Below, piece by piece: positions 2,022 to 60,593 of a stretch of 64,000 bases of DNA (its first letter is position 1; every line of letters starts with the position of its first letter). The stretch covers positions 156,266-220,265 of the forward strand of contig JARLHZ010000025.1 of assembly GCA_031291995.1 (NCBI GenBank), in the 5' to 3' direction. Made by a program: the position numbers and the translations under genes. This stretch comes from Candidatus Doudnabacteria bacterium. GTDB taxonomy: Bacteria; Patescibacteriota; Doudnabacteria; UBA920. Below the pieces are notes generated by a model. The model saw only the letters and a program-made list of their open reading frames with translations. It was not told the DNA's origin and ran no database searches.

Positions 2022-2134
2022 GTGTCATTCCGGGCAGTAGCAGCCGAGTCGAGGAATCCCTTAAATTAATTAACTATCGAATGTTAAGGGATCCCTCCAC
2101 TCCCTCAGATGCATTCGGTCGGTCGGGATGACAC
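2022..2134. repeat. TIR repeat family 3 copy (gtgtcattccgg ... ccgggatgacac), immediately upstream of prfA
   Basis: Terminal inverted repeats gtgtcattccgggc / gtcgggatgacac, with an internal gagtcgaggaatccctta...taagggatccctcc palindrome. Related copies at 13575-13637, 13951-14026 and 44255-44395. Confidence 0.75.
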
Positions 2135-2144
2135 GAGGAATTAT

Positions 2145-3215
2145 ATGGAAGTTGGATTTAAAAAGATTTTGGACGAGTACGACTCTATTACCACCGAAAT
2201 GTCTTCCGGCGGGTCTTTTGACATGCAGAAGCTGGGCAAAAGGCAGGCTGAGCTGGCGCCTATTGTCGGGAGAATTAGCGAACTGGAAAAATTGGAGAAA
2301 GAGCTGGCCGAGAACCAAAAGCTATTAAGTGACAGTGATCCGGAAATAAAATCTATGGCCCTGGATGAGGGGCGGCGTTTGGAGTCGCGAGTCCTTGATT
2401 TGAAATCCGAGGTTGAAGAAGCCCTTTTGCCTAAAGACGCTAACGATAATAAAAATGTCATTGTGGAAATCCGCGCCGGGGCCGGCGGGGACGAAGCGAC
2501 ATTATTTGTTGCTGAGATGTTTAGGGCTTACGGAAAATTTGCCGAAGAGCTGGGGTTTACGCCGCACATCGTGTCGTCTTCCAAGTCAGACGCCGGCGGG
2601 TTTAAGGAGGTTATCTTTGAAATCCATGGCAGAGTCTCGGCGCAAAAGCACCCTTATCAGATGTTTAAATATGAATCCGGTGTTCACCGGGTGCAAAGAG
2701 TTCCGGAAACGGAAAAAAGCGGACGCGTGCATACCTCCACAGTCACGGTGGCGGTTTTGCCGATTTTAGAAGAGAAAGATTATGCCATTGCCGATAAAGA
2801 TTTAAAAATAGAAGCGACAACTTCGTCCGGACACGGCGGACAGTCGGTAAACACTACATATAGCGCCGTAAGGATCCTTCATATCCCTACCGGTATTACG
2901 GCCCAGTGCCAGGACGAGCGCAGTTTTATGCAAAACAAGGAAAAAGCCCTGGAAGTCATCCGCGCTCGCGTGGCTCAGCATTACGAAGACATCGAGAACA
3001 AAAAAGTTCGTGATCTGACAAAATCACAAATCGGTACCGGCGACCGTTCCGAAAAAATCCGCACCTATAATTTCCCCCAGGACCGCGTAACCGACCATCG
3101 GATTAACCAAAACTTCAACCAGATAAACCTTATAATGGAAGGCAAACTCTCCCAAATTTCTGAAGCTTTGCAAAAGGCAGACTTGGAAATGAAGAAGGAA
3201 GCATTAAAGAAATAA
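2145..3215 (+). CDS. prfA: Peptide chain release factor 1
   Basis: GGQ motif (SSGHGGQSVNTT) and RF1 domain order. Start moved from the track's 2109 to the ATG at 2145 (MEVGFKKILDEY), after a GAGGAA Shine-Dalgarno at 2135-2140. The upstream in-frame portion lies inside the family-3 repeat. Confidence 0.9.
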   Translation: MEVGFKKILDEYDSITTEMSSGGSFDMQKLGKRQAELAPIVGRISELEKLEKELAENQKLLSDSDPEIKSMALDEGRRLESRVLDLKSEVEEALLPKDANDNKNVIVEIRAGAGGDEATLFVAEMFRAYGKFAEELGFTPHIVSSSKSDAGGFKEVIFEIHGRVSAQKHPYQMFKYESGVHRVQRVPETEKSGRVHTSTVTVAVLPILEEKDYAIADKDLKIEATTSSGHGGQSVNTTYSAVRILHIPTGITAQCQDERSFMQNKEKALEVIRARVAQHYEDIENKKVRDLTKSQIGTGDRSEKIRTYNFPQDRVTDHRINQNFNQINLIMEGKLSQISEALQKADLEMKKEALKK

Positions 3216-3230
3216 TTAGGTTTACGAAGT

Positions 3231-3288
3231 ACGAAGTTTTACGAACTTACGAAGTTCGTAAGTTCGTATTTGTTCGTACTTCGTAAAA
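3231..3288. repeat. Hairpin repeat family 1, copy 2, between prfA and prmC
   Basis: Same arms as 484-566 but lacks the central 15-nt ttagtgcacaaactt segment. Confidence 0.8.
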
Positions 3289-3291
3289 TAT

Positions 3292-6797: not shown

Positions 6798-6801
6798 AGG
6801 T

Positions 6802-6930
6802 AGTAATCGCGAAAATACGAATATTTTATAATATACGAAACCGTTCACTGTCAGCTGTCTTTTCCATTAAAGATAAGCTGACAACTAACGGTTTTGTATA
6901 TTAATTTAGATTTGTATATTTGCGACTACT
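6802..6930. repeat. MITE-like repeat family 2, copy A (degenerate)
   Basis: About 40-bp terminal inverted repeats agtaatcgcgaaaatacgaatatttt... / ...tttgtatatttgcgactact. The internal cactgtcagc...gctgacaact inverted repeat is shared with copies at 9053-9180 and 31141-31270. Confidence 0.8.
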
Positions 6931-6949
6931 ATTATGGTAGCATAATTTT

Positions 6950-8990: not shown

Positions 8991-9052
8991 TTTGGTTGTT
9001 GTTTTGTTATAGGTTTATTATAGCAAAGATATTGGATTTTTGGTATATTTAG

Positions 9053-9180
9053 AGTAATCGCTAATATACGAATCATTTATAATATACGAAGCGGTCCACT
9101 GTAAGCCGCCTGTTCTACGAAGTAATGCCTACAACTGACGGCTTCGTATATTAATTTTGATTCGTATATTCGCGATTACT
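9053..9180. repeat. MITE-like repeat family 2, copy B (best-preserved TIRs)
   Basis: agtaatcgctaatatacgaatcatttataatatacgaagcgg ... ccgtcttcgtatattaattttgattcgtatattcgcgattact, a near-perfect 40-bp TIR pair, immediately upstream of dnaE. Confidence 0.85.
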
Positions 9181-9199
9181 ATCGTGATTGCAAAAAACT

Positions 9200-13158: not shown

Positions 13159-13514
13159 AATCTATTCCAATTAAGTGGTTTTTGCAAGCTGTCGGAATGT
13201 TTGTTTGGAAATCCTCTAAAATTATTGCCATAAATGCTTGTGGACAACGCTGTGTGGACAACGCTGTTGCGCCCTTTCCCAGAATTTGATATATTGTATG
13301 CAGTTCTTCAAACAGCGATCCGGCTACCAACCGGGGAGTTTGAGACAAATTGCAATAAATCTGTTATGTTCTAGAGCCATAACGGATGAAAAGTCTTTTG
13401 ATATCAAAATCAAAAGAATTCTGGGACGGAAACGTTCTGCGTAGCAGGGCCCCAGGTTTGAGTTATCAAGTAAATGATATCTCAACCTTGGGGCTTTTAC
13501 GTTTTATTTACAGA

Positions 13515-13532
13515 GACCGCGGATACGCGGAT
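13515..13532. repeat. 18-bp direct repeat, right copy (gaccgcggatacgcggat)
   Basis: Identical to 12708-12725. Preceded by a + strand hairpin with a T-run (ccccaggtttgag...ctcaaccttgggg cttttacgtttt, about 13455-13505). Confidence 0.8.
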
Positions 13533-13574
13533 CGGCCCGTATTGAAGGACGAAATCAATAAATGGCGCTTCCGT

Positions 13575-13637
13575 GTGTCATCCCGACCGAGGTTCGTCAA
13601 TGGAATTTAATGGACGGACGGAGCGGAGGGATCCCTT
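13575..13637. repeat. Family 3 repeat, partial copy (left TIR gtgtcatcccgaccgag + ggagggatccctta core)
   Basis: Shares the left TIR and central core with 13951-14026 and 2022-2134; the right TIR is missing. Confidence 0.65.
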
Positions 13638-13650
13638 ATCCTTCTAAATT

Positions 13651-13941
13651 ATGCAAGACAGCCAGTATTTTGTATACATAATGTCCAGCGTCAGCGGAAC
13701 CTTTTATATAGGAGTAACCAATGATTTATATAAAAGAGTTTACCAACATAAAAGTAATATAATCGAAGGTTTTACGAAAAAGTACGAATGCCATAAACTG
13801 ATATATTTTGAAGAGACTTCCGATATAGAGAGCGCAATTTTAAGAGAAAAGCAGTTAAAAAATTGGAATCGCAAGAAAAAAGAATTTTTAATCGCGACAA
13901 AGAACGCAATCTGGAAAGATTTAAGTTTAGATTGGAAATAA
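13651..13941 (+). CDS. Small GIY-YIG nuclease-domain protein
   Basis: YFVYIM...GTFYIGVTNDLYKRVYQHK is the GIY-YIG motif; 96 aa. Flanked by family-3 repeat copies. Confidence 0.75.
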   Translation: MQDSQYFVYIMSSVSGTFYIGVTNDLYKRVYQHKSNIIEGFTKKYECHKLIYFEETSDIESAILREKQLKNWNRKKKEFLIATKNAIWKDLSLDWK

Positions 13942-13950
13942 ATTATTAGT

Positions 13951-14026
13951 GTGTCATCCCGAGCGAGTGCAGCCGAGTCGAGGGATCCCTCCGCTCGTCG
14001 GCTGCACTCCGCGGTCGGGATGACAC
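13951..14026. repeat. Family 3 repeat, 76-bp imperfect palindrome (gtgtcatcccgagcgagtgcagccgagtcgagggatccctcc...gtcgggatgacac)
   Basis: Blocks gtgtcatcccga / gtgcagccga / gggatcc are mirrored on both arms. It lies between the GIY-YIG gene and the thrS start. Confidence 0.8.
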
Positions 14027-14043
14027 ATAATGGAGATACGGGT

Positions 14044-15798
14044 ATGGATATAAATCAGCAATTACAAAACAAACGCCATTCGCTAGCGCACCTTTTGGCC
14101 GCGGCGGTAATTAAGTTGTATCCCGGGACTAAAAGAACCATCGGACCCGCGATTGATAACGGATTTTATTATGATTTTGAGTTTAAGGAGCCGATAACCG
14201 AAAAGGATTTGCCGAAAATCGAGAAAGAAATGAAAAAGCTCCAGAAAACCTGGTCGGCTTTCGAGCGCCGGGAAATAACGGCGGACGAGGCGCGCGATAT
14301 TTTTAAAGACAACCCTTATAAGTTGGAACTCATCGACGAATTTTCCAAAGAAGGCCAGACTTTGACCATGTATAAGTCCAGCCAGTACTTTGAAGATTTA
14401 TGCCGGGGCGGCCATGCCGAGGATATGTCTAAAATAGACCCCGAGTCTTTTAAGCTGTCCAAAGTTGCCGGGGCTTACTGGCGCGGTGACGAAAAAAATA
14501 AAATGCTGACCAGAATTTACGGTCTGGCCTTTGAAACTAAAGAGGATCTGGATAAATATTTAAACATGCTGGACGAAGCGGAAAAAAGGGATCATAAAAA
14601 ATTAGGCCCCGCCTTGGATTTATTTGTGTTTTCAGATTTGGTCGGCGCCGGCTTGCCGCTGTGGACGCCCAAAGGAACGCTGGTGCGCAATTTGCTGGAT
14701 GATTATGTATGGAGCCTGCGCAAAAGTATTGGTTATGAAAAAGTGGAAATTCCCCATATTACCAAAAAGGAATTGTACGAAAAAAGCGGCCATTGGGATA
14801 AATTTAAGAACGAGCTGTTCAGGATTACCACGCGCGAAGGCCATGAATTCGCCATGAAGCCGATGAATTGCCCCCACCACACGCAGATTTATGCAAGAAA
14901 ACTATTTAGTTATCGCGAGCTTCCCCAAAAATATTCCAACACGACAACATGCTATCGCGACGAGCAGACCGGCGAACTTTCCGGCCTTTCCCGTGTGCGG
15001 GCCTTTGCCCAGGATGATGCCCATGAATTTTGCCGCTTTGGCCAGGTAAAGCAAGACTTGGGCGATATTTGGGATAAAGTGGTTGAACCATTTTACGGCT
15101 CGTTCGGCTTTAAATTAAAATTGCGTTTATCGTTGCACGACCCGGCCCAGCCGGAAAAATATTTGGGCGGCCAGGAGCGCTGGCAACAGGCCGAAAGCAT
15201 ACTTCGGGAGTTGGCAAAAGAAAGACATGTAGAGTTTGTTGAAGCTCCCGGGGAAGCGGCTTTTTACGGGCCAAAGCTGGATTTTATGGCCATGGATTCA
15301 TTAGGCCGGGAGTGGCAAGTGGCAACTATCCAGCTCGATATGAATATGCCGGAACGTTTTGATTTATATTGTATTGACGAACAGGGCCAGCATGAGCGAA
15401 TTGTCATGCTGCATGCGGCTATTATGGGCTCAATTGAAAGATTCTTGTCTATATTAATTGAACACACAGCGGGCACTTTCCCGCTTTGGCTGTCCCCTGT
15501 CCAGGTGGCGGTATTGCCGATTGGCGATAAGCAGATTGAGTATGCTAGAGATACAATTAACAATTTACGATTAACAATTAACACGTTAAGGATTGAATTG
15601 GACGACCGGGCGGAATCCATAGGCAAAAAAATCCGCGAAGCCACTTTGCAAAAAATTCCTTACCAGTTAATAATCGGCGAAAAGGAAACCGAAGCCGGCA
15701 AAGTCGCTGTCCGCTTGCGCGACGGCACCAATTTGGGTCAAATTACCGTAAAGGAGCTGGCCGATAAAATAGAGTCGGAAATTGCAAATAAATTATAA
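14044..15798 (+). CDS. thrS: Threonyl-tRNA synthetase (lacks the N-terminal TGS domain; starts at the editing domain)
   Basis: HSLAHLLAAAVIKLYPGTKRTIGPAIDNGFYYDF matches the ThrRS N2 editing domain; class II catalytic core and C-terminal anticodon-binding domain follow. Start taken at ATG 14044 (MDINQ), downstream of the palindrome that the track ORF runs through. Confidence 0.9.
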   Translation: MDINQQLQNKRHSLAHLLAAAVIKLYPGTKRTIGPAIDNGFYYDFEFKEPITEKDLPKIEKEMKKLQKTWSAFERREITADEARDIFKDNPYKLELIDEFSKEGQTLTMYKSSQYFEDLCRGGHAEDMSKIDPESFKLSKVAGAYWRGDEKNKMLTRIYGLAFETKEDLDKYLNMLDEAEKRDHKKLGPALDLFVFSDLVGAGLPLWTPKGTLVRNLLDDYVWSLRKSIGYEKVEIPHITKKELYEKSGHWDKFKNELFRITTREGHEFAMKPMNCPHHTQIYARKLFSYRELPQKYSNTTTCYRDEQTGELSGLSRVRAFAQDDAHEFCRFGQVKQDLGDIWDKVVEPFYGSFGFKLKLRLSLHDPAQPEKYLGGQERWQQAESILRELAKERHVEFVEAPGEAAFYGPKLDFMAMDSLGREWQVATIQLDMNMPERFDLYCIDEQGQHERIVMLHAAIMGSIERFLSILIEHTAGTFPLWLSPVQVAVLPIGDKQIEYARDTINNLRLTINTLRIELDDRAESIGKKIREATLQKIPYQLIIGEKETEAGKVAVRLRDGTNLGQITVKELADKIESEIANKL

Positions 15799-21285: not shown

Positions 21286-21315
21286 CCTTTGATGCCCTAG
21301 AGCACGCCTGCCAAT

Positions 21316-21352
21316 CGGACCGATTTTCTCGGCCGAGAAAATCGGTCCGATA
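21316..21352. repeat. Perfect 37-bp palindrome (tcggaccgattttctcggccgagaaaatcggtccga), family 4 copy 1
   Basis: Shares the outer atcggac and core ttttctcggccgagaaaa with 21896-21932; the middle triplets differ with compensatory changes. Confidence 0.8.
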
Positions 21353-21360
21353 CCAATTTT

Positions 21361-21885
21361 ATGGGCGTGCCAAGAAAAAATCTGCTGACCGCATTAATTT
21401 TGCAATTGTTCGACCCCGACACTCCCCTTCTTCCCGTGGAGTCGACTTACGATTTTATAAAAAGGAAGAGGGATTGCCGCCGGCCGCAATATCGCGATTG
21501 TTTGAAAGGCTTGCGCCGACGCGGGGTAATTGAGATTGTCAAAAAACGCCAGCGGGAATTCGCAAAACTTACCAAGAAAGGTTCGCTAAAAATTTTGTTG
21601 GAAAAAGCGGAAATTAAAACGGTTCAACCTTGGGACGGCAAATGGAGATTGGCAATATTCGATATTCCGGAAAGATTTAACAACTCCCGCGACAATTTTC
21701 GCCATCTTTTGAAGCAGAACGGTTTTGTGAAATTGCAAGCCAGCGTATTTATCAGTCCATACCCAATTTCACGAGCAGCGCTAACATACCTAAAGGAAGT
21801 TGGCCTTGATCATTTTGTACGAATCTTAAAAATTGAGGAGTTGGATAATGATTCCGCATTAAAAAAGAAATTTGGACTTAAATAG
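21361..21885 (+). CDS. PaaX-family-like transcriptional regulator
   Basis: The C-terminal WDGKWRLAIFDIPERFNNSRDNFRHLLKQNGFVKLQASVFISP matches the PaaX_C signature (W-G-W...iPE...R...L...GF..L...SVWisP). The N-terminal region is a winged-helix-like basic segment. Confidence 0.55.
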   Translation: MGVPRKNLLTALILQLFDPDTPLLPVESTYDFIKRKRDCRRPQYRDCLKGLRRRGVIEIVKKRQREFAKLTKKGSLKILLEKAEIKTVQPWDGKWRLAIFDIPERFNNSRDNFRHLLKQNGFVKLQASVFISPYPISRAALTYLKEVGLDHFVRILKIEELDNDSALKKKFGLK

Positions 21886-21895
21886 CTTTTTACCA

Positions 21896-21932
21896 TCGGA
21901 CTCTTTTTCTCGGCCGAGAAAAAGAGTCCGAT
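21896..21932. repeat. Perfect 37-bp palindrome (tcggactctttttctcggccgagaaaaagagtccga), family 4 copy 2
   Basis: See 21316-21352. Confidence 0.8.
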
Positions 21933-22073
21933 ATGTTTTTTAATGATTATGGAAGATAACGAGGCTGGTTATCGGTTCGGAAATTAATGCTTCCAAGCTA
22001 GCTGTTCGCAAAAAAGGTTTTGGGGCGTTAGACAAATTACATTCATTTTAAAATTTTATGGTACAATAACTTT

Positions 22074-31140: not shown

Positions 31141-31270
31141 AGTAATCGCGAATATACAAATTTATTATTAATATACGAAGCGGTACACTGTAAGTTAATT
31201 TTTCTATTTTGATCGGCAGACAACTCTTGGTTTCGTATATTAATTTAAGATTCGTATATTCGCGATTACT
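31141..31270. repeat. MITE-like repeat family 2, copy C
   Basis: agtaatcgcgaatatacaaatttattattaatatacgaagcgg ... ggtttcgtatattaatttaagattcgtatattcgcgattact. It fills exactly the spacer between two minus-strand genes. Confidence 0.85.
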
Positions 31271-31619
31271 AGTTGACCCTGGTTAAAAACAGTACCGCGG
31301 AAAGTAAAATAAACTCCACAAAAAAACTTACCAGCGCGCTTAACGCGGCCAAAAAATCCTGCCTATTCTTAATTGCTCGAAAAAGAGTGAAATTAACAAT
31401 TAAGATTGCCATTCCAATAGCCGGAATAAAGTAGAGGTTCCGACCCGGCCCATACCATAAAACCCCGACTAATACGTTATAATGAAGCGCAAGAGGGCTT
31501 TGACCGGGTTTGATTTTGAAATAAAGGAACAAAAATGTTATAATGTTAAGCGTTAAGGATAACGCCCAAAGAAACCAAACATTTCTGAAATAGTTTTTTA
31601 TAATCGAAATAAAATCCAT
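31269..31619 (-). CDS. Small multi-TM membrane protein (possibly GtrA-like)
   Basis: Three to four hydrophobic helices. Start placed at the internal ATG to avoid overlap with the divergent GT39 gene; start uncertain. Confidence 0.4.
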   Translation of the reverse strand: MDFISIIKNYFRNVWFLWALSLTLNIITFLFLYFKIKPGQSPLALHYNVLVGVLWYGPGRNLYFIPAIGMAILIVNFTLFRAIKNRQDFLAALSALVSFFVEFILLSAVLFLTRVN

Positions 31620-44254: not shown

Positions 44255-44395
44255 TTGTCATTCCGGCCAAGCAGAATTTAAGCAGTATTTTTCGAGTCGA
44301 GAAATCAATTAAATTTTGTGATTTTCTTCGTTAAGGGATCGCTCCATGCGGCCCGATACTGATGTTCTAATGGCGGGTCTTGGTCGGGATGACAC
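44255..44395. repeat. TIR repeat family 3 copy (ttgtcattccggcc ... gtcgggatgacac)
   Basis: Collinear with the 2022-2134 copy: shared blocks gtcattccgg, cgagtcgag, ttaagggatc.ctcc and ggtcgggatgacac. Confidence 0.75.
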
Positions 44396-57849: not shown

Positions 57850-58138
57850 AATATGATATTCCTGCTTTAGCTGCCTTTATAATACCATTTGACGAGATTC
57901 CTTTAAAGCCTCTTTCGGCACCTCAAACCACTCCGGGTTTTCTTTGTAAATTATCCTCAATTTCTGTATATAGCCATCAATAGCCCAATACCAGCGGGGC
58001 TTTCGTGGTTCGAACTTCCGGAGGTCTCCACCGCCACACTTCGCTAAAGCTTCGTGTGGCTTTCAGCCACTCACTTGCAAGGTTTAGCGAAGTGTGTCAC
58101 CCATAGCTTAAGCGACGGGTGACAGTAATGAGTTTAGT

Positions 58139-58375
58139 ATGTACTATGTTTATCTGCTAAAACTATCCAGCGGTAAAATCTACACCGGCTCATCGCCCGA
58201 TTTAAAACGCAGAATCCCTGAGCACGAGAAAGGTAAATGTGAGGCCACAAAAAACTTCCGGCCGTTAAAATTATCTTGGTACTGCGCTTTTGAAACCAGG
58301 CTTCTAGCCAGACAGTTTGAAAACTATCTGAAAACCGGTTCAGGGCAAGCATTTAGAAATAAACATTTTGCTTAA
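58139..58375 (+). CDS. Small GIY-YIG nuclease-domain protein, second copy
   Basis: MYYVYLLKLSSGKIYTGSSPDLKRRIPEHE is the GIY-YIG motif; 78 aa. Confidence 0.7.
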   Translation: MYYVYLLKLSSGKIYTGSSPDLKRRIPEHEKGKCEATKNFRPLKLSWYCAFETRLLARQFENYLKTGSGQAFRNKHFA

Positions 58376-60055: not shown

Positions 60056-60061
60056 ATGGCT

Positions 60062-60115
60062 TTCTACTAAATACTAAAAGATACTAAAGATACGAAATAC
60101 TAAACTTGAGATACT
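60062..60115. repeat. Left 54-bp terminal inverted repeat of GxxExxY cassette 1 (tctactaaatactaaaagatactaaagatacgaaatactaaacttgagatacta)
   Basis: The reverse complement of 60535-60588 matches it along its whole length, with a few mismatches. It overlaps the stop codon of the enclosed gene. Confidence 0.8.
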
Positions 60116-60501
60116 ATGTTGACTATTCGTTTACATACCACCCCTGTCTTGGTAAAGTTAGCCAGTATGCCAAGTTTGACATGCTCCAATTTGATATAAT
60201 CACTGAGCTGTTTAATATTTTTTATTCCGAAATTTTCGTGTTTCTTGATCTCCAAGATAATTTTGGCTTCGCCAATTTTGATTAGAAAATCCGCATAATA
60301 AATTCCGATAAACTTTCCCTCGTAATATAGCTTGATTGGATGTTGCTCAACAAAATCAATCCCAGCAAGTTTTAGAGCAATTGCAACAGCTTTTTGGTAA
60401 TGTTTTTCCAATAACTCGCCGCCCAGGTCTTTAAAGACCTTTATCAGAATTCCTACGATTTTATAATATTCATCTTTATAAACCAGGTCTTCCCTTAACA
60501 T
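60100..60501 (-). CDS. GxxExxY-family protein (PD-(D/E)XK nuclease-like), cassette 1
   Basis: YKIVGILIKVFKDLGGELLEKHYQKA N-terminus (GxxExxY motif G-E-L-L-E-K-H-Y); 133 aa. Inserted between atpD and atpC. Confidence 0.7.
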   Translation of the reverse strand: MLREDLVYKDEYYKIVGILIKVFKDLGGELLEKHYQKAVAIALKLAGIDFVEQHPIKLYYEGKFIGIYYADFLIKIGEAKIILEIKKHENFGIKNIKQLSDYIKLEHVKLGILANFTKTGVVCKRIVNIVSQV

Positions 60502-60534
60502 TTTCGTCTATTATTTTTATTTTCGCAAATATCT

Positions 60535-60588
60535 GTACTATCTAAGTTTAGTATTTAGTATATTTAGTATTCTTTCGTATTTAGTAGA
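60535..60588. repeat. Right terminal inverted repeat of GxxExxY cassette 1
   Basis: tactatctaagtttagtatttagtatatttagtattctttcgtatttagtagag is the reverse complement of the left TIR. Confidence 0.8.
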
Positions 60589-60593
60589 GAGGA

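Follow-up and report, generated by a model that had tools for sequence, protein, structure and literature searches.

The 64,000-nucleotide stretch of Candidatus Doudnabacteria DNA examined here (contig JARLHZ010000025.1, assembly GCA_031291995.1; hereafter the window) carries a dispersed family of hairpin repeats, copies of which lie on both sides of a small gene, ssn, encoding a GIY-YIG nuclease. The repeats were first noticed by a model that read the sequence without database searches (hereafter the original prediction). It placed four copies at 2022-2134, 13575-13637, 13951-14026 and 44255-44395 and described them as terminal inverted repeats (TIRs) around a shared core, with variable insertions in the loop. 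We confirm a hairpin-repeat family at these four loci, with all the coordinates borne out, and find that it comprises seven oriented units. All four loci are intergenic: the 2022 copy lies between rpmE (1652-1912) and prfA, the 13575 and 13951 copies between a 178-aa open reading frame (ORF) and thrS, and the 44255 copy next to the 3' end of pheS (Table 1).

The repeat unit and its copies

Alignment of the repeat arms, written 5' to 3' from their GTGTCAT end, reveals that one oriented unit underlies the family. The unit has a conserved 5' segment (GTGTCATYCCGR), a variable middle of 0-30 nt and a conserved 3' segment, GAG(T/C)(C/G)GAGGGATCC (this end is also written GAGYSGAGGGATCC), and all seven units could be aligned as GTGTCATYCCGR...GAGYSGAGGGATCC, with a C following the ATCCC/GGGAT closing stem. 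An nhmmer profile of the unit matched precisely these seven in the window and nothing else, with E-values ranging from 1e-6 to 1e-12. Six of the seven pair as three inverted, head-to-head doublets (2022-2134, 13951-14026 and 44255-44395), and the so-called TIRs are more aptly regarded as a pair of complete, oriented hairpin motifs in face-to-face arrangement, in the manner of REPINs. The seventh unit, at 13575-13637, had been taken for a half copy; it is instead a complete single unit with an insert of ~22 nt, and it occupies the usual upstream-unit position of most GIY-YIG homologues. The variable insertions of the loop turn out to be of two kinds, namely inserts within a unit and the spacer between the units of a doublet, where the gene sits in the full-length form.

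The possibility that the copies merely resemble one another by chance, as GC-rich palindromes might, had been named by the original prediction as the outcome that would refute it. The decay of the 44255 copy is the only observation in its favor. Against it, the 12-mer GTGTCATCCCGA occurs exactly five times over both strands of the window, compared with ~0.008 occurrences expected in 128 kb of random sequence; with up to two mismatches it has seven matches against 2.7 expected, the 2022 copy itself beginning with a two-mismatch version. The core GAGTCGAGGGATCCCTCC, with up to three mismatches, has four matches against 0.01 expected. Given also the nhmmer E-values and the presence of identical ends at at least 119 loci elsewhere (see below), the probability of a chance resemblance is negligible. 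The claim of shared ends thus holds, whereas that of a shared core is only partly true, because matches to GAGTCGAGGGATCCCTCC are confined to the copies at 2022 and 13951: at 13575 it has four mismatches, and decay is far advanced in the core of the 44255 copy.

Table 1. Repeat units, spacer and ssn gene of the window, with strand and supporting match. L numbers designate comparison loci.
Feature	Position	Strand	Remarks
Left unit of doublet upstream of prfA (GTGTCATTCCGG...GAGTCGAGGAATCCCT)	2022..2061	+	nhmmer E = 1.5e-7
Spacer of the 2022-2134 doublet	2062..2086	.	With the unit ends reads CCCTTAA-n-TTAAGGG; position of ssn in full-length elements (junctions compared with L124, L127, L204)
Right unit of doublet upstream of prfA	2087..2134	-	nhmmer E = 1.2e-12
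Single unit directly 5' of ssn	13575..13637	+	nhmmer E = 2e-10; ~22-nt internal insert relative to L202
ssn, 96-aa single-domain GIY-YIG nuclease, probable Ssn family	13651..13941	+	Pfam PF01541, E = 1e-16
Left unit of 76-nt doublet between ssn and thrS	13951..13990	+	nhmmer E = 2.5e-10
Right unit of 76-nt doublet	13982..14026	-	nhmmer E = 3.3e-9; overlaps left unit at central GGATCC
Left unit of decayed doublet, between 137-aa ORF and pheS 3' end	44255..44310	+	nhmmer E = 1.3e-6
Right unit of decayed doublet	44334..44395	-	nhmmer E = 1.9e-7; large internal insert

The GIY-YIG gene and its flanking repeats

The product of ssn matches PF01541 over residues 5-77 and has no further domain. It has thousands of homologues, the closest of which come from Patescibacteria, and 24 aligned homologues are 87-122 aa long, mostly 95-100. 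Of the catalytic residues, Y19 and E66 are invariant across 25 homologues, and Y9, R29, H33 and N85 are invariant or nearly so. A search of solved structures found only distant UPF0213 relatives (PDB 1zg2 and 1ywl; E = 2.5e-6), and no NCBIfam family scored above its cut-off for the protein. The UPF0213/YhbQ-type proteins resemble it in their small single-domain GIY-YIG fold but are distant from it (31 bits), and we know of no association of these proteins with flanking hairpin repeats.

A closer precedent is provided by the Ssn proteins of Chenal et al. 2025 (Nat Commun; PMC11893778), which are single-domain GIY-YIG proteins of ~94 aa assigned to CDD cd10448 (GIY-YIG_unchar_3). SsnA of N. meningitidis binds the NTS hairpin repeat (CGTCATTCCCGCGMAVGCGGGAATCYRG) solely as single-stranded DNA (ssDNA) and nicks one strand only, a few nucleotides 5' of the motif, being inactive on double-stranded DNA and RNA; its residues Y6, Y17 and E64 were mutated in the same study (PMC11893778). 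At least one Ssn-related motif (SRM) was reported near 71% of the homologue genes, and on both sides of 42% (PMC11893778). Our literature search found nothing on Ssn later than this paper.

The window protein is of similar size to the Ssn proteins, its Y9, Y19 and E66 correspond to Y6, Y17 and E64 of SsnA, and the spacing of 47 residues between Y19 and E66 is that between Y17 and E64. The gene is also flanked by repeats in the orientation of SRMs. Upstream, a (+) unit (13575-13637) ends 14 nt before the ATG, and downstream lies the 76-nt doublet, the right half of which is a (-) unit (13982-14026). The units of the window have the conserved GTCAT 5' of the hairpin and a C just 3' of the palindrome and, as in the published system, they are multicopy and intergenic (seven units at four loci in 64 kb), beginning with GTCAT and ending in ATC.

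Whether the repeat is tied to GIY-YIG genes elsewhere was a check proposed by the original prediction, and the tie is borne out. We searched 80 metagenomic loci encoding homologues for the motif GTCATYCYSR; 58 of these loci have enough flank on both sides. The motif is found in (+) orientation within 150 nt upstream of the gene at 39 of 68 loci and in (-) orientation within 150 nt downstream at 40 of 68. Both occur together at 26 of 58 loci, as against four of 58 for both in reversed orientation, and the background in the rest of these loci amounts to 0.26 motifs per kb over both strands. At L124, L127 and L204 the gene lies exactly central between two units (...GGAATCCCTTAAAAT-ATG...TAA-GGGATTCC...); an example of a gene at the doublet centre reads GTCATTCCGAGCGAAGCCGAGGAATCCCTTAAAAT-ATG...TAA-GGGATTCCTCGGCTTCGCTCGGAATGAC. 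In addition, at 12 of 78 homologue loci, with 48-66% identity to the window protein, the flanking repeats satisfy the published SRM pattern (HGTCWYN(0-2)YYVSBRHN(0-5)WNVSBRGN(0-2)RNCYNB, in an implementation that accepts the NTS consensus). Several of these repeats, for example TGTCATTCCCGCGAAGGCGGGAATCCAG, match the Neisseria NTS consensus save for the first base, and the Neisseria-type NTS itself borders close homologues of the window protein. Since these homologues carry SRM-pattern repeats, several of them close to NTS, the family of the window protein is tied to Ssn.

Based on the unit(+)-gene-unit(-) layout and on the homologues with SRM-pattern repeats, we think it likely that the repeats are SRMs and that 13651-13941 encodes their cognate Ssn-family GIY-YIG nuclease in Candidatus Doudnabacteria. 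The window is then a further example of the known Ssn/SRM system and no new kind of element, and it extends the range of this system to Patescibacteria. The two differ in that the window units are 35-63 nt long, compared with ~28 nt, and have CCCGA/GAGGG arms that fall outside the published pattern. They also occur mostly as head-to-head doublets forming palindromes of 76-141 nt, in a Patescibacterium, and the activity would be assigned by homology. Each new pair of Ssn and motif is a candidate site-specific ssDNA nuclease of different specificity.

The repeat itself is far more widespread than the window. A scan of one genome per species with the pattern GTGTCATCCCGA-N40-70-TCGGGATGACAC identified doublets with identical 12-nt ends at at least 119 loci in at least 8 phyla. 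The matches listed include Proteobacteria (Alpha-, Beta- and Gamma-), Acidobacteriota, Gemmatimonadota, Planctomycetota, Verrucomicrobiota, Armatimonadota, Chloroflexota and Patescibacteria, and all of them are doublets of a unit such as GTGTCATCCCGAGCGNAGCGAGGGATC with a short linker. A GIY-YIG gene is present within the ~8-kb locus in one of the 119 matches listed, which is the pattern expected of many dispersed motifs per nuclease gene; this count alone looks like no association, whereas the search that starts from the gene shows one.

Such a distribution, with most copies distant from any GIY-YIG gene, and the occurrence of inverted doublets with no target-site duplication, as in REPINs, would also be compatible with a REP/REPIN family mobilised by a RAYT (an IS200-like tyrosine transposase) encoded elsewhere in the genome. 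The gene flanked by REPINs is the RAYT, though, whereas in the window, as in 45-59% of 58-68 homologue loci, a GIY-YIG gene in fixed orientation takes this place. Further, no Y1-transposase gene lies next to any copy examined (no whole-genome screen was made), and we regard mobilisation by a RAYT as most improbable. The resemblance to REPIN/RAYT systems (Bertels and Rainey 2011, PMC3116915) extends to the dispersed intergenic inverted doublets of short hairpin repeats, the single associated gene that is itself flanked by the repeat, the lack of target-site duplication and the long vertical inheritance of the association. The partner differs, being in the window a GIY-YIG nuclease without known strand-transfer chemistry and in the other case an IS200-type tyrosine (HUH) transposase. 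IS200/IS605 elements likewise have subterminal hairpins recognised as ssDNA, cleavage beside the hairpin and no target-site duplication, but both of their end hairpins are on the same strand and are acted upon by a TnpA dimer, unlike the window element with its motifs on opposite strands and an enzyme of another class.

In the cross-phylum set (L003-L121) the unit is centred on GCGNAGC, with GA...GA on either side. Among 104 parsed doublets GCGNAGC is the predominant inner segment, its N being free (C 46, A 33, T 24, G 11), and covarying variants such as ACGCAGT, CCGAAGG, GGCGAAGCC and GGGCGAAGCCC occur. Terminal self-complementarity of at least 2 bp is seen in 55% of distinct inner segments, compared with 10% of shuffled ones. 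The two units of a doublet are unlike each other in 40 cases out of the 104, each being self-complementary nonetheless, which argues that the unit hairpin, and not the long palindrome as such, is maintained. The inserts in the Patescibacterial CCGA...GAGCG frame also differ yet remain self-complementary (GGCCGTTCGACGGCC in L023, GCGAAGC in L037 and GTTCGTC...GACGGAC in the 13575 unit of the window). The sequence d(GCGNAGC) is the classical and very stable DNA mini-hairpin with tandem sheared G.A pairs, and such a mini-hairpin would fit an ssDNA ligand rather than RNA.

Turnover at orthologous sites and a candidate mechanism

We compared the rpmE-prfA spacer among loci with the gene order tsf-rpsB-rpmE-prfA, in which prfA is 82-87% identical. 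The window and L206 each have a doublet, that of L206 belonging to another sub-variant with the centre again reading CCCTTAA...TTAAGGG, and no doublet is found in L207, L208 or L209. The spacer of L209 is 88 nt long and repeat-free, and L208 matches the leader sequence of the window up to the insertion point, without the repeat.

This polymorphism at an orthologous site, along with the TIRs and the intergenic location of copies in variable states, would be expected of classical MITEs (miniature inverted-repeat transposable elements), i.e., non-autonomous insertion-sequence derivatives that a DDE or similar transposase mobilises in trans by recognising the TIRs. MITEs such as the Correia elements are also short, palindromic and located beside genes, some copies affecting their neighbours. 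Target-site duplication and dependence on a transposase are features of MITEs, and neither is seen in the window family. On reading the flanks of the three doublets (TTAGCA/GAGGAA, TTATTA/ATAATG and TTAAAT/CTTTTT) we found no direct repeats. The only gene consistently present between such arms, in the window and 80 related loci, is the 96-aa GIY-YIG nuclease, and no full-length form encoding a transposase was found among the loci examined (no whole-genome screen was made), where full-length forms encode only this nuclease. The arms, moreover, are complete oriented hairpin motifs that are also found singly (13575-13637; L204). Thus, the MITE-like character that had been proposed is retained insofar as the copies are dispersed, variably decayed and insertion-like, but lapses in the lack of a target-site duplication and in the partner, a 96-aa nuclease instead of a transposase, and we hold a classical MITE to be very unlikely.

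The same comparison bears on the suggestion that the copies are regulatory or terminator hairpins acting at the RNA level, selected by the host for prfA, thrS and pheS, with the GIY-YIG gene a mere neighbour. Two copies do stop just short of ribosome-binding sites (by 1 nt and 7 nt), the ssn element lies within the thrS leader region, and the hairpins are very stable as RNA: the 76-nt copy forms a near-perfect hairpin of -56 kcal/mol as RNA (z = -8.0) and of -35 kcal/mol as DNA (z = -8.8). However, relatives with the same rpmE-prfA arrangement lack the hairpin, and the motif also borders ssn homologues whose gene contexts and phyla are unrelated. None of the copies has a U-run after it on either strand, promoter and terminator scans are at chance level, and the terminator scan of 13300-14200 found nothing at the repeats. 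The repeats have no Rfam match either, as a scan of the whole window at gathering thresholds returned three tRNAs only and permissive scans around the repeats returned chance miRNA-type matches only. The homologue that has been studied does not bind RNA (PMC11893778). A function of this kind is therefore very unlikely.

Relationships among the units are compatible with exchange between loci. At the thrS site L202 has a (+) unit upstream of ssn and a half-decayed doublet downstream. For the right unit of the window's prfA-side doublet (2087-2134) the closest match (44/48) lies downstream of ssn in L202, and for the right unit on the thrS side (13982-14026) it lies upstream of ssn there (42/45), so that the closest relatives of window units are at non-orthologous positions. 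Further, a 13-nt stretch of the L206 spacer is identical to the 3' end of the window ssn (0/300 shuffles). In the 2022 copy the right end of the spacer and the start of the right unit read TGTTAAGGGATCCCT, which resembles the ssn 3' end of L204, TGGTAAGGGATCCCT (1/300 shuffles), at the position that TGG-TAA-GGGATCCCT occupies at the end of ssn in L204. The presence and absence of doublets, the unit relationships and these putative remnants are together consistent with units being inserted, lost and exchanged; they would likewise suit an origin of gene-less doublets from the full-length element by deletion, or a role of such doublets as its homing targets.

Several observations weigh against the interpretation given here. 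The published SRM pattern has no match on either strand of the window, and it also misses the canonical cross-phylum unit GTCATCCCGAGCGAAGCGAGGGATC. For the window units the failure is due to the A in CCCGA and the longer middle; the repeat class of the window is a variant outside the published pattern, and this defining feature of SRMs is formally lacking in it. Single units of the window fold no better than shuffled sequences (z -0.4 to +1.3), although whole doublets do, in a nearest-neighbour model that gives no credit for sheared G.A pairs or GNA loops. The sole recurring stem in the window units is the ATCCC/GGGAT closing stem, which is predicted in three of seven. The placement of the window protein in Ssn derives from the flanking repeats of its homologues, not from an alignment with SsnA or a cd10448 assignment, and activity of the Patescibacterial homologues would be expected by homology alone. 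Also, L202 has ssn at the thrS site of the window, with 86% amino acid identity, which suggests that the window copy has been vertically inherited for some time. The matches indicating ssn remnants are short (13-15 nt) and were found after the fact, and the remnants may be considered possible on sequence grounds. As regards the pattern, it overlooks a large cross-phylum class, GTCATCCCGA...GAGGGATC, and counts based on it are underestimates because this class is missed.

If the repeats are SRMs, the Doudnabacterial enzyme would, by homology with SsnA, recognise the units when their DNA becomes single-stranded, during replication, repair or DNA uptake, and would place its cut a few nucleotides 5' of GTGTCAT, just outside the end of the unit. 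GIY-YIG chemistry leaves a 3'-OH. The recognisable orientation would be that of the top strand at the left end of the element and of the bottom strand at the right end, so that two nicks would fall just outside the element, one per strand. The full-length form would be unit(+)-ssn-unit(-), with gene-less doublets as its derivatives or targets that spread to other intergenic sites. Speculatively, the nicks may start displacement synthesis or recombination between copies and thereby spread the doublets or the gene; we infer both ssDNA cleavage by the window protein and any part that it has in copying the doublets. The repeat family, the layout of its units, the tie to the gene family, the spread over phyla and the polymorphism at an orthologous site are, by contrast, shown directly. 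The hairpins on the ribosome-binding-site side of prfA and thrS and the false ORF extensions would be by-products of the landing sites, and the copies beside ribosome-binding sites are most simply seen as sites where insertion was tolerated. Patescibacteria are naturally competent and dependent on DNA uptake, and because of this reliance an ssDNA-specific nuclease could matter in them. A role in limiting the recombination of incoming ssDNA, as for Ssn in Neisseria (PMC11893778), is equally possible.

Chenal et al. noted that NTS-ssnA-NTS resembles an insertion sequence and raised the analogy to REP/RAYT as a hypothesis (PMC11893778). Perhaps, though we consider this doubtful, the unit-ssn-unit form and the gene-less doublets are the autonomous and non-autonomous partners within a class of mobile elements that a GIY-YIG single-strand nickase drives, in analogy to RAYT and REPIN. 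The doublets of such a pair would spread by displacement synthesis and reinsertion or by homing-like gene conversion between copies. This proposal is compatible with, and not proven by, presence and absence at the orthologous site, units shuffled between loci, the possible ssn 3' remnants and the different ssn/SRM variants at the site upstream of thrS. The loci with presence, absence or remnants are concrete places bearing on the mobility of Ssn elements, and whether Ssn mobilises the doublets is the more interesting question.

Neighbouring genes and other palindromes

The palindromes mislead gene callers. As originally described, the 2022 copy reaches the Shine-Dalgarno sequence of prfA, ending at 2134 and followed by GAGGA at 2135-2139 and the ATG at 2145. 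The 13951 copy lies, again as described, between the GIY-YIG gene and the start of thrS, with its end at 14026, GGAGA at 14033 and the ATG at 14044. The mechanically called ORFs at 2109-3215 (prfA) and 13951-15798 (thrS) indeed translate through the palindromes, and these N-terminal extensions are artefacts, because the database proteins are 356 aa (PrfA) and 584 aa (ThrS) long; both match proteins of a Candidatus Doudnabacteria metagenome-assembled genome at 100% identity. Several database prfA homologues are longer (391-403 aa, against 356 aa) and may be similarly over-extended at the N-terminus. In the Gammaproteobacterial L072 (3449-3763) it is the Ssn frame that runs into the repeat, and read from stop to stop it ends in ...HSERSEESR, which is translated repeat.

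The ssn element is situated between the thrS leader and the thrS start codon. This leader (13318-13512) is conserved and structured, ends in a long hairpin and a U-run (13446-13510) and has no Rfam match. RNAalifold, applied to four sequences only (the window, L202, L210 and L212), predicts 59 pairs, nine of them with compensatory changes. The leader contains CTACCAACC, including the Thr codon ACC, and may be a divergent T-box-like attenuator. A thrS operator or T-box formed by the palindrome itself was ruled out, as prfA and pheS have the repeat too. Likewise ruled out was a group I intron with a homing endonuclease, there being no intron and no DNA-binding domain in the protein, and a CRISPR array was considered and rejected.

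Other nuclease genes occupy the same site in relatives. L210-L212, in which thrS is 85-87% identical, have a PDDEXK_3 (PF13366) gene without SRM in place of ssn (357-827 in L210, 1332-1997 in L211 and 1521-1967 in L212), which in L212 is bracketed by its own inverted repeats, ACAGACCGCGGATACGC ... GCGTATCCGCGGTCTGT. An apparent lone left arm of this L212-type repeat is present in the window at 13510-13536, just upstream of the ssn unit. L213 (thrS 82% identical) has, at ~1500-2000, a different Ssn-type GIY-YIG gene, 51% identical and probably frameshifted near its 3' end, which is flanked by another SRM variant, GTCATTGCGA...GAAGCAATC. The site upstream of thrS appears to act as a hotspot at which small nuclease genes settle together with palindromes of their own. 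Directly 3' of thrS, a further small nuclease-type gene of this locus, DUF559/MTES_1575 (Vsr-like endonuclease fold) is found in L202 (3814-4269), L210 (2642-3076) and L212 (3822-4139).

Elsewhere in the window, a second, distant GIY-YIG ORF (58139-58375; 78 aa, PF01541 E = 2.8e-14) is 30% identical to the first. It is preceded by a hairpin, GTGTCACCC...GGGTGACAG (58094-58126), that is not repeated elsewhere in the window. At least three further families of AT-rich palindromic repeats, unrelated in sequence to the SRM-like family, are also present, namely a TTCGTA-rich family, the TAGTAATCGCGAATATACGAA type and a TACTAAA-rich family (at 471-577, 3220-3290; 6801-6945, 9037-9196, 31141-31271; 60060-60591). 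Finally, in a further case of a gene enclosed by palindromes, a 174-aa ORF with a PaaX central Cas2-like domain (21361-21885) lies exactly between two near-identical palindromes, ATCGGACCGATTTTCTCGGCCGAGAAAATCGGTCCGAT (21314-21361 and 21895-21942).

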